Below, one piece after another: positions 2,334 to 16,995 of a DNA stretch of 16,995 bases. Both the position numbers and the translations under genes were made by a program. The stretch comes from a virus (taxonomy: Duplodnaviria > Heunggongvirae > Uroviricota > Caudoviricetes). The notes beneath the pieces were generated by a model. It was not told where the DNA came from and searched no databases. It saw nothing but the letters and a program-made list of their open reading frames with translations. The stretch lies in the IMG/VR virus record IMGVR_UViG_2627853844_000004, one strand, 5' to 3'. The stretch's first letter is position 1. Each line of letters starts with the position of its first letter.

Positions 2334-3077
2334 TTACTCCCTGACAGGGTTCGTAGGCCACTCAATATCAGGTGCAGTTGATGTATCAACACGGTTCAGC
2401 AACACCCGATATTTTTTCCAGGCTTCCAGCAATGAGGTTTCTTCCTCCGTTGCGATTTCCAGATCTACAGCATCCTGAAGTGGCGCAATATGCTCACTGG
2501 CTACCTGCATCAGGCTGTTTTTTGTTTCTTCCGCCTCCCGAATCCGGAACAGTTTTTCTGCTTCTGCATCTTTCACCCAGGCTGTACCGTTCCACTTCTG
2601 AAACTCCCCTTCCGGCGATAACCAGGTAACATTTTCCGGTAACGGACCGAGTTCAGAAATAAATAACGCGTCCCCTGACGCTACGTCATAAACCGTTTTA
2701 CCCCGATGATCTTCAACGAGATGCCACGATGACTCATCACTGTTGAAAACAGCCACGAAGCCAGCTGGAATAAGGGTGTTGCGCTGCTTATGCTCTATAA
2801 AGTAGGCATAAACACCCAGCAGCATTTTGGAATAACCGACACGGGCAGACTTCACCACATTCACCTCACGGATGTAGTCGCTGCCCATCGCATTCATGAT
2901 GGCCCGCTGAAAGGGCAGTGTTTCCCAGCGCCCTTCCTGGTATGCGGATTCTTTCGGGAGATAGTAATTAGCATCCGCCCATTCAACGGCGGTCTGTGGC
3001 TCCGGCCTGAACAGTGAGCGAAGCCCGGCGCGGACAAAATGCCGCAGCCTGTTAACCTGACTGTTCGATATATTCAC
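2334..3077 (-). pseudogene. In-frame deletion fusion: terminase large subunit (gpA) N-terminal 103 codons joined to Tfa C-terminal ~144 codons
   Basis: Residues 1-103 ([28 protein letters not shown]...[14 protein letters not shown]) match the lambda gpA N-terminus as I recall it. From residue 104 ([29 protein letters not shown]...[14 protein letters not shown]) it matches the lambda Tfa C-terminus. Junction lies between 2768 and 2769 (minus-strand ...cttatt|ccagctgg...). Corresponds to the K-12 aaaD/tfaD pseudogene pair by recollection. Confidence 0.85.
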
Positions 3078-3502
3078 TCAGCAACCCCGGTATCAGTTCA
3101 TCCAGCGCGGCTGCTTTGTTCATGGCTTTGATGATATCCCGTTTCAGGAAATCAACATGTCGGTTTTCCAGTTCCGGAAAACGCCGCTGCACCGACAGGG
3201 GGATCCCGTCGAGAATACTGGCAATTTCACCTGCGATCCGCGACAGCACGAAAGTACAGAATGCGGTTTCCACCACTTCAGCGGAGTCTCTGGCATTTTT
3301 CAGCTCCTGTGCATCGGCCTGCGCACGCGTAAGTCGATGGCGTTCGTACTCAATAGTCCCTGGCTGGAGATCTGTCTCGCTGGCCTGCAGCAGTTCTTCA
3401 ACCTCCCGGCGCAGCTTTTCGTTCTCAATTTCAGCATCCCTTTCGGCGGTGATGCTGCCAACTTACTGATTTAGTGTATGATGGTGTTTTTGAGGTGCTC
3501 CA

Positions 3503-3778
3503 GTGGCTTCTGTTTCTATCAGCTGTCCCTCCTGTTCAGCTACTGACGGGGTGGTGCGTAACGGCAAAAGCACCGCCGGACATCAGCGCTATCTCTGCTC
3601 TCACTGCCGTAAAACATGGCAACTGCAGTTCACTTACACCGCTTCTCAACCCGGTACGCACCAGAAAATCATTGATATGGCCATGAATGGCGTTGGATGC
3701 CGGGCAACAGCCCGCATTATGGGCGTTGGCCTCAACACGATTTTACGTCACTTAAAAAACTCAGGCCGCAGTCGGTAA
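3503..3778 (+). CDS. insA: IS1 InsA (transposition repressor)
   Basis: 91-aa [43 protein letters not shown]... with zinc-finger-like N-terminus typical of InsA. Confidence 0.95.
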
Positions 3779-4200
3779 CCTCGCGCATACAGCCGGGCAG
3801 TGACGTCATCGTCTGCGCGGAAATGGACGAACAGTGGGGCTATGTCGGGGCTAAATCGCGCCAGCGCTGGCTGTTTTACGCGTATGACAGTCTCCGGAAG
3901 ACGGTTGTTGCGCACGTATTCGGTGAACGCACTATGGCGACGCTGGGGCGTCTTATGAGCCTGCTGTCACCCTTTGACGTGGTGATATGGATGACGGATG
4001 GCTGGCCGCTGTATGAATCCCGCCTGAAGGGAAAGCTGCACGTAATCAGCAAGCGATATACGCAGCGAATTGAGCGGCATAACCTGAATCTGAGGCAGCA
4101 CCTGGCACGGCTGGGACGGAAGTCGCTGTCGTTCTCAAAATCGGTGGAGCTGCATGACAAAGTCATCGGGCATTATCTGAACATAAAACACTATCAATAA
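3697..4200 (+). CDS. insB: IS1 InsB frame (expressed as InsAB' transposase by -1 frameshift)
   Basis: 167-aa ORF in the -1 frame relative to insA. An A6C slippery run (aaaaaac, 3754-3760) lies in the overlap, which is the known IS1 frameshift motif. Confidence 0.9.
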
Positions 4201-4374
4201 GTTGGAGTCATTACCCCTTTCGGCATACCATTTTATGACGGCGGCAGAGTCATAAAGCACCTCATTACCCTTGCCACCGCCTCGCAGAACGGGCATTCCC
4301 TGTTCCTGCCAGTTCTGAATGGTACGGATACTCGCACCGAAAATGTCAGCCAGCTGCTTTTTGTTGACTTCCAT

Positions 4375-4610
4375 TGCACATTCCACGGACAAAAACAGAG
4401 AAAGGAAACGACAGAGGCCAAAAAGCTCGCTTTCAGCACCTGTCGTTTCCTTTCTTTTCAGGGGGTATTTTAAATAAATACATTAAGTTACGACGAAGAA
4501 GAACGGAAACACCTTAAACCGGAAAATTTTCATAAATAGCGAAAACCCGCGAGGTCGCCGCCCCGTAACCTGTCGGATCGCCGGAAAGGACCCACAAAAT
4601 GATAATAATT
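4375..4610 (-). other. Lambda-type cos site (cosQ-cosN-cosB); 12-nt cohesive-end sequence at 4552-4563
   Basis: Minus strand reads ...cgatccgacaggttacg GGGCGGCGACCT cgcgggttttcgctatttatgaaaattttccgg..., matching the lambda right-end/left-end junction and cohesive end as recalled. The region between cosN and the Nu1 start (cosB) is near-identical to lambda. Confidence 0.85.
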
Positions 4611-4762
4611 ATCATCTACATGTCACAACGTGCATCTACGCCATCAAACCACGTCAAATAATCAATTATGACGCAGGTATCGTATTAATTGATCTGCATC
4701 AACTTAACGTAAAAACAACTTCAGACAATACAAATCAGCGACACTGAATACGGGGCAACCTC

Positions 4763-5613: not shown

Positions 5614-6024
5614 ATGGCTCAGGTTGCCATTTTTAAAGAAATATTCGATCAAGTGCGAAAAGATTTAAACTGTGAATTGTTTTATTCTGAACTAAAACGT
5701 CACAATGTCTCACATTATATTTACTATCTAGCCACAGATAATATTCACATTGTGTTAGAAAACGATAACACCGTGTTAATAAAAGGACTTAAAAAGGTTG
5801 TAAATGTTAAATTCTCAAGAAATACGCATCTTATAGAAACGTCCTATGATAGGTTGAAATCAAGAGAAATCACATTTCAGCAATACAGGGAAAATCTTGC
5901 TAAAGCAGGAGTTTTCCGATGGATTACAAATATCCACGAACATAAAAGATATTACTATACCTTTGATAATTCATTACTATTTACTGAGAGCATTCAGAAC
6001 ACTACACAAATCTTTCCACGCTAA
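5614..6024 (+). CDS. ybcV: Uncharacterised prophage protein, 136 aa (DUF1398 family by recollection)
   Basis: ORF track gives 177 aa from 5491. The ATG at 5614 ([11 protein letters not shown]...) has a GGAAGG Shine-Dalgarno about 9 nt upstream and gives 136 aa, the length I recall for YbcV. Stop codon taa at 6022-6024 abuts IS5. Confidence 0.65.
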
Positions 6025-7219
<1,195 letters not shown>

Positions 7220-7221
7220 CT

Positions 7222-15831: not shown

Positions 15832-16995
15832 ATGTCACTCTTCCGCAGAAATGAAATATGGTATGCCTCGTATTCGCTCCCGGGCGGGAAACGAATTAAG
15901 GAATCTCTTGGCACAAAGGACAAACGGCAAGCTCAGGAGTTGCACGACAAGCGAAAAGCAGAACTCTGGCGAGTAGAAAAGCTAGGGGATTTACCTGATG
16001 TCACTTTTGAAGAGGCCTGCCTAAGATGGCTTGAGGAAAAAGCTGATAAAAAATCTCTCGATTCAGATAAAAGCCGGATTGAGTTCTGGCTTGAACATTT
16101 TGAGGGTATAAGGCTTAAAGATATCTCGGAGGCAAAGATTTACTCTGCTGTAAGCAGAATGCATAACAGAAAGACGAAAGAAATATGGAAACAGAAAGTT
16201 CAGGCCGCCATCAGGAAAGGTAAAGAACTGCCTGTTTATGAACCAAAGCCAGTATCAACTCAGACAAAGGCAAAGCATCTTGCCATGATAAAGGCCATTC
16301 TCCGTGCTGCAGAACGCGACTGGAAGTGGCTGGAAAAAGCGCCTGTCATCAAGATACCAGCGGTCAGAAACAAGCGAGTCAGATGGCTGGAAAAGGAGGA
16401 AGCAAAACGCCTTATTGATGAGTGCCCCGAACCACTGAAATCTGTCGTCAAGTTTGCGCTGGCAACTGGTCTGAGAAAGTCGAACATCATAAATCTGGAA
16501 TGGCAACAAATCGACATGCAGCGACGAGTTGCCTGGGTGAATCCAGAAGAGAGCAAATCAAACCGCGCCATTGGTGTGGCGCTGAACGATACCGCCTGTA
16601 AAGTGTTGCGTGATCAAATAGGCAAGCATCACAAATGGGTGTTTGTACATACCAAGGCGGCTAAGCGAGCAGATGGAACATCAACGCCTGCGGTCAGGAA
16701 GATGCGCATCGACAGCAAGACATCATGGCTATCAGCTTGTCGTCGTGCAGGAATTGAAGATTTCCGTTTCCATGACCTCAGACACACCTGGGCAAGCTGG
16801 CTGATTCAGTCAGGCGTCCCATTATCAGTGCTTCAGGAAATGGGCGGATGGGAGTCCATAGAAATGGTTCGTAGGTATGCTCACCTTGCGCCTAATCATT
16901 TGACAGAGCATGCGAGGAAAATAGACGACATTTTTGGTGATAATGTCCCAAATATGTCCCACTCTGAAATTATGGAGGATATAAAGAAGGCGTAA
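15832..16995 (+). CDS. intD: Tyrosine site-specific integrase, complete 387 aa
   Basis: Complete ORF with AGGAAAG Shine-Dalgarno. C-terminal catalytic region ...[44 protein letters not shown] contains the R...HxxR...Y signature of tyrosine recombinases. Symbol from recollection of the 387-aa DLP12 integrase; a closely related paralog (intS) cannot be excluded by memory alone. Confidence 0.85.

Follow-up and report, generated by a model that had tools for sequence, protein, structure and literature searches.

The question raised by this locus is how, when and in which strains a copy of IS1 came to lie inside nohD, a small terminase gene of DLP12, a cryptic prophage in E. coli K-12, and whether its arrival had anything to do with the loss of ~3.4 kb of the same prophage nearby. 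The window (the whole stretch of 16,995 bases that was analyzed) extends from appY to intD in DLP12. It is colinear with, and 100% identical to, five complete genomes, including ER2796 and ER3413, which it matches along its full length, and it is colinear with K-12 except for the IS1 in nohD and a separate deletion adjacent to IS5. Our reading, to which we give a probability of about 0.96, is that nohD received, in a single transposition, an IS1 of the IS1A/E/H sequence type that was already resident in K-12, and that this took place while the sub-lineage leading to ER2796, ER3413 and the genomes CP010438-40 was in laboratory use.

The insertion itself is a known event, published in 2015 for ER2796. 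The text of that paper names nohD among the IS-disrupted genes of the strain, and its S1 Table lists nohD::IS1 as a block of 777 bp between MG1655 positions 580216-580217, at ER2796 577049-577825 (Anton et al., 2015; PLoS One 10:e0127446; PMC4444293). The insertion in the window is the same event as that in ER2796 and ER3413, and the element shows no differences from theirs. What our analysis adds to the published account is the sequence type of the donor (IS1A/E/H), a count of how often the insertion occurs among 5,426 genomes, its presence in three more genomes (CP010438-40) and, from the sequence comparisons set out below, evidence that the 3.4-kb deletion is IS5-adjacent, older than the IS1 and independent of it.

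The IS1 element and its insertion site in nohD

The features of the interrupted gene and of the element within it are the following (positions are those of the window):

3052-3447, minus strand: nohD 3' fragment, codons 51-181 plus stop (RefSeq "DNA-packaging protein, missing N-terminus")
3439-3447: left copy of the 9-bp target-site duplication, CCTTTCGGC; its minus strand reads GCC GAA AGG, nohD codons 51-53 (A-E-R)
3448-4215, plus strand: complete IS1, 768 bp, IS1A/E/H sequence type, with its transposase genes opposite to nohD
3448-3470, plus strand: IRL, beginning GGTGATGCTGCCAACTTACTGAT, 23 nt, 78% complementary to 4193-4215
3503-3778, plus strand: insA, 91 aa, zinc ribbon and HTH (ORF list; Pfam Zn_ribbon_InsA and HTH_Tnp_IS1)
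3697-4200, plus strand: insB' frame, DDE catalytic domain (ORF list; Pfam DDE_Tnp_IS1, E=6e-78)
3754-3760, plus strand: A6C (AAAAAAC) slippery motif, located in the sequence
4193-4215, plus strand: IRR, ending ATCAATAAGTTGGAGTCATTACC (inverted-repeat analysis)
4216-4224: right copy of the 9-bp target-site duplication, CCTTTCGGC
4216-4374, minus strand: nohD 5' fragment, codons 1-53 (Pfam Phage_Nu1 positions 1-55 only; RefSeq "DNA-packaging protein, missing C-terminus")

The element has each of the hallmarks of the IS1 family: a length of ~768 bp with ~23-bp inverted repeats at its ends (23 nt, imperfect, 78% complementary), an insB' frame that overlaps insA in the -1 phase, the A6C motif, nucleotide identity to other IS1 copies and a 9-bp duplication of the target. 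In IS1, the transposase is a fusion of InsA and InsB' that arises by -1 programmed frameshifting at the A6C motif. The nohD copy is complete, with all the working parts, and presumably active. Alignment to the seven annotated IS1 copies of MG1655 found it identical to IS1A, IS1E and IS1H at 768 of 768 positions, with nine differences from each of IS1B, IS1C and IS1D and 73 from IS1F, and in RefSeq it is entered as an IS1A-family transposase, flagged for programmed frameshift. All three of the matching copies, being identical to one another, fit equally well as the donor.

Within the 16,995-bp window there are exactly two copies of the nonamer CCTTTCGGC, one on either side of the element. The chance expectation for the window is ~0.10 matches, and two or more copies were obtained in 2 of 200 shuffles; more to the point is the probability of the same nine bases standing on both sides of an element, which is 4^-9 (~4e-6). 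In MG1655 nohD the nonamer (GCCGAAAGG) is single-copy, and it represents the sole overlap between the two gene halves. It lies in the reading frame of nohD, with the duplication corresponding exactly to codons 51-53. By chance the direct repeat is 10 bases long (CCCTTTCGGC), because the final base of IS1 is also C, and this ambiguity is the reason that the published 777-bp block is placed one base further along, mapping to window 3438-4214 and representing the same 777 bases with a shift of one base inside the repeat.

The start of nohD (CAT) is at 4372-4374 on the minus strand. The ORF that now begins at 4374 runs into the right end of IS1 and stops at 4135-4137, for a 79-aa product made up of 53 native and 26 IS-encoded residues, and the 3' fragment of the gene has no start codon. 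Excision in silico of 3448-4224 produced an uninterrupted 181-aa ORF on the minus strand, from 4374 to 3052, whose DNA is 100% identical to MG1655 nohD (b0560), the two halves tiling the gene without a mismatch. The restored protein matches Pfam Phage_Nu1 (PF07471) at E=6.1e-100 over profile positions 1-164 of 164, and also matches solved small-terminase chains, namely 6HN7 (98 residues aligned, two differences), 1J9I (residues 1-68) and 7LW0 (residues 1-55). Restored NohD thus resembles phage lambda gpNu1, the protein of these chains, across the full Phage_Nu1 model and, from the matches to 1J9I and 6HN7, has an N-terminal winged-helix domain like that of gpNu1. The sequences flanking the element are colinear with the intact allele, with no loss, no inversion and no second IS copy.

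These results agree with the first-pass annotation of this DNA, made from the letters alone, on each of the points that it raised about the insertion itself. It had identified the element as IS1, and the 768/768 identity and the Pfam IS1 domains leave it so identified; its description of the split gene as a Nu1-like small terminase is borne out by the Phage_Nu1 and structure matches. The perfect 9-bp target duplication that it reported, and the duplicated A-E-R codons, are present as the identical in-frame nonamers described above. The check that it proposed, excision of 3448-4224 and translation, gave back the ORF with no stops or frameshifts, and its claim of a simple insertion is upheld by the perfect duplication and by flanks that are unchanged relative to MG1655 nohD.

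Two other IS1 insertions in K-12 strains are of the same simple kind. IS1E in yrhA of MG1655 comprises a 768-bp IS1 with nine extra bases, the second yrhA fragment resuming 9 bp past IS1E, and for xylF::IS1 (the xyl-7 allele) the tabulated insertion covers 777 bp, at ER2796 3702309-3703085 (Anton et al., 2015; PMC4444293). Both differ from nohD::IS1 in their target genes, the nohD target being in a cryptic prophage and without known phenotype.

Distribution of the insertion among complete genomes

We searched 5,426 complete E. coli genomes with 300-bp probes centered on each of the two junctions. The left junction was contiguous in five genomes (ER2796, ER3413, CP010438, CP010439, and CP010440) and the right junction was present in exactly the same five. 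The uninterrupted site was found at ≥80% coverage in 3,936 genomes, MG1655 included, a count that takes in paralogs of this Nu1-like gene in other prophages. All five carriers are laboratory derivatives of K-12, ER3413 having been engineered from ER2796, and the xylF::IS1 (xyl-7) junction, which is an independent marker of the ER2796 pedigree, was detected in each of them. Both junctions of nohD::IS1 are therefore confined to 5/5,426 genomes, each of them xyl-7 positive, as is to be expected of a lineage marker.

The first-pass annotation expected no IS1 at this position in MG1655 and suggested a comparison of nohD across E. coli genomes to learn whether the reference has it. That comparison showed nohD of MG1655 (NC_000913.3) to be intact. 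The associated proposal that the insertion may be a strain-specific marker stands only in part: it is absent from MG1655 and restricted to 5 of the 5,426 genomes, but what it marks is a lineage (ER2796, ER3413, and CP010438-40) and not a single strain. The two junctions represent a unique fingerprint of the lineage of ER2796/ER3413, a widely used methylation-free host, and could be employed for strain authentication or for the detection of contamination.

The genomes CP010438-44 (NZ_CP010438.1 to NZ_CP010444.1) are labeled "K-12 MG1655," and all seven have the exact xylF::IS1 junction, from which we infer that they belong to the ER2796 pedigree and that the label is misleading. CP010438-40 also have nohD::IS1 and the DLP12 deletion and, with these and the xyl-7 marker, are not plain MG1655; a literature search for the origin of these three found no paper. 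Neither IS1 junction, nor the deletion junction, was present in the other four members of the xyl-7 pedigree, CP010441-44, which points to a different ancestry for their DLP12 region, probably through crosses, and complicates any simple tree-like dating.

A sixth candidate carrier of the left junction, the chicken isolate Ec-RL2-1X (NZ_CP066839.1), was rejected, as the match was in two pieces and its small-terminase gene is intact. The DLP12-like prophage of this isolate has an independent IS1 in the cos-ylcI spacer (locus about 3300-4460), a few hundred bases from the K-12 site, which may be a coincidence or may reflect a mild regional preference of IS1.

RV308 (NZ_LM995446.1, 524053-548213) covers 100% of the window, but as four pieces spread across 24 kb. 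Neither nohD::IS1 junction was found in this genome by the junction-probe searches, so the IS1 part of the window query must have matched IS1 elsewhere in the span. Genes for a fimbrial usher and a porin lie in the 24-kb span, and the four-piece mapping implies extra insertions or a rearrangement in or near DLP12 of this K-12 strain.

The adjacent DLP12 deletion and the order of events

Further features of the window that bear on its relationship to the reference are:

about 6025-7220: IS5 splitting nmpC, as in reference MG1655
about 13.8-15.0 kb: IS3 in renD (a split ren-like gene), as in reference MG1655
15832-16995: intD

With the new IS1 counted, this 17-kb stretch of DLP12 has three different IS elements (IS1, IS3, and IS5).

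Relative to MG1655, the window is missing ~3.4 kb of DLP12, comprising nmpC fragment 1, essD, rrrD, rzpD/rzoD, and borD. The loss is listed in the published S1 Table as a DLP12 prophage deletion (nmpC-borD) of 3398 bp, at 575013-578410, and the text of the paper ties the DLP12 loss to an IS1A insertion (Anton et al., 2015; PMC4444293). In the window the deletion junction is at 6024/6025, where the end of IS5B (GGAAGGTGCG...) abuts the CTAA that includes the stop codon of ybcV, and a junction of this sequence is the mark left by an IS5-adjacent deletion when its target is CTAA. The ybcV-IS5 junction was identified in 12 genomes: the five IS1 carriers, AB1157, two HB101 records, RR1, ET12567, BH212, and a "Dam/Dcm" strain. 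In AB1157 the deletion is accompanied by an annotated nohD that is intact, and HB101, RR1 and ET12567 also combine the deletion with an intact nohD.

These observations decide whether the IS1 and the 3.4-kb loss arose as one linked, IS1-mediated event, a reading that has in its favor the short distance between the two changes in ER2796, within ~1.8 kb, and the wording of the paper, which links them. We reject a single event because AB1157 has the deletion and an intact nohD, and the small probability that we leave to any such linkage is further opposed by the structure of the locus. The ends of the deletion are an exact IS5B end and the CTAA at the ybcV stop codon, the IS1 keeps its intact 9-bp duplication with no adjoining loss, and three genes that lie between the IS1 and the deletion (ylcI, ybcW, and ybcV) are intact. 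In AB1157, HB101, RR1, ET12567, BH212 and the Dam/Dcm strain, moreover, the deletion junction exists without the IS1.

The state of AB1157 indicates that the deletion is the older change and that the IS1 was a later and independent one, nested in the deletion lineage, and this nesting in turn places the insertion within the laboratory history of K-12. The IS1 insertion is recent, and its zero divergence from the resident copies and its perfect duplication agree with this. "Probably recent" was also the estimate of the first-pass annotation, and it has gained support from the same two properties and from the nesting in a lab-derived deletion lineage. The comparison resolves a minor ambiguity of the published account, in that the 3.4-kb DLP12 deletion is IS5-adjacent, predates the IS1 and was not caused by it.

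Origin of the insertion and its likely consequences

From established IS1 biology, the steps of a single transposition into nohD can be proposed. The InsAB' DDE transposase, made by the -1 frameshift at A6C, would have joined the ends of the IS1 to staggered target cuts 9 bp apart, and repair of the gaps would then have duplicated CCTTTCGGC. The result is a nohD split at codons 51-53, with an upstream part that can encode only 53 native residues and a 26-residue IS1 tail. The 53 native residues are nearly the whole of the winged-helix DNA-binding domain.

Two other origins for the nohD IS1 were considered, and to each we assign a negligible probability. Were the element ancestral to K-12 or to DLP12, it would have to have been excised precisely from the other strains, which is feasible in principle between target duplications. 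Precise excision of IS1 is rare, and the empty site was found in 3,936 genomes, among them MG1655 and other K-12 derivatives that span the region; the element is absent from both MG1655 and AB1157, its few carriers all fall within a lab-derived deletion lineage, and it shows no divergence at all from resident IS1 copies. The second possibility is an assembly artefact, an IS1 copy misplaced by repeats in a long-read assembly, and IS elements are indeed a classic source of misassembly. An error of this kind is hard to reconcile with two junctions that are identical in five separately deposited complete genomes, or with a perfect 9-bp in-frame duplication, which is a biochemical signature that is not expected from misassembly, and the insertion was explicitly tabulated by the authors who described ER2796 (PMC4444293).

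What the transposition of a resident IS1 into nohD is likely to have meant for the host depends on the state of the neighboring terminase gene:

2334-3077, minus strand: aaaD/tfaD fusion ORF, 247 aa, overlapping the nohD stop; the first ~100 large-terminase codons plus a tail-fiber-assembly protein

Directly downstream of nohD, a lambda-type large terminase is cut after ~100 codons and fused to a tail-fiber-assembly gene (aaaD/tfaD), and aaaD is annotated as a truncated pseudogene in MG1655, ER3413 and AB1157; no intact large terminase gene follows nohD. The fusion is the scar of a large internal deletion that took the morphogenesis genes of the prophage. With the large terminase already truncated, nohD was an orphan relic with no place in a working terminase before the IS1 hit it, and a packaging function is not expected of it even before the insertion. 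It is in this that NohD differs from lambda gpNu1, as the gene for its partner large subunit is truncated. Because the large terminase of DLP12 was already a truncated pseudogene, nohD::IS1 is probably neutral in phenotype and a lineage marker only, as far as can be judged from the sequence. We regard it as a classic case of IS1 transposing into a defunct prophage gene, with very little biological weight.

A selected insertion, whether because it removes a mildly toxic NohD, because a free Nu1 domain hinders lambdoid packaging or because expression of a neighbor is altered, is improbable. In its favor, residues 1-53 are retained by the truncated ORF and make up nearly all of a domain that has been solved as residues 1-55 and 1-68, and an intact IS1 could affect transcription of its flanks. 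Against selection, there was no recurrence, the insertion being found in one lineage only among the 5,426 genomes, and the only other IS1 nearby, that of the chicken isolate, is in the cos-ylcI spacer and outside the gene. The ER2796 pedigree also includes many single-colony bottlenecks and mutagenic steps, which would fix neutral IS hops. Also improbable is a specific effect of the NohD 1-53 fragment, which, if expressed, might sit on the cos sites of infecting lambdoid phages as a dominant-negative inhibitor of packaging; were this so, strains of the ER2796 lineage would have acquired an accidental, partial resistance to lambdoid phages. The fragment comprises practically all of the cosB-binding winged-helix domain and is without the parts for oligomerization and for binding of the large subunit.

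The leader of nohD (window about 4375-4620, minus strand) has retained a lambda-like cos region, and it can be aligned over its whole length with the sequence that precedes Nu1 in live lambdoid phages, in which, as in DLP12, the gene lies directly downstream of the cos-like leader. Many live lambdoid phages match the restored stretch of cos leader and nohD with 95-99.7% identity in the corresponding region. Within the leader, at 4552-4563, is AGGTCGCCGCCC, which we take to be the 12-nt cohesive-end sequence of the lambda left end, GGGCGGCGACCT.
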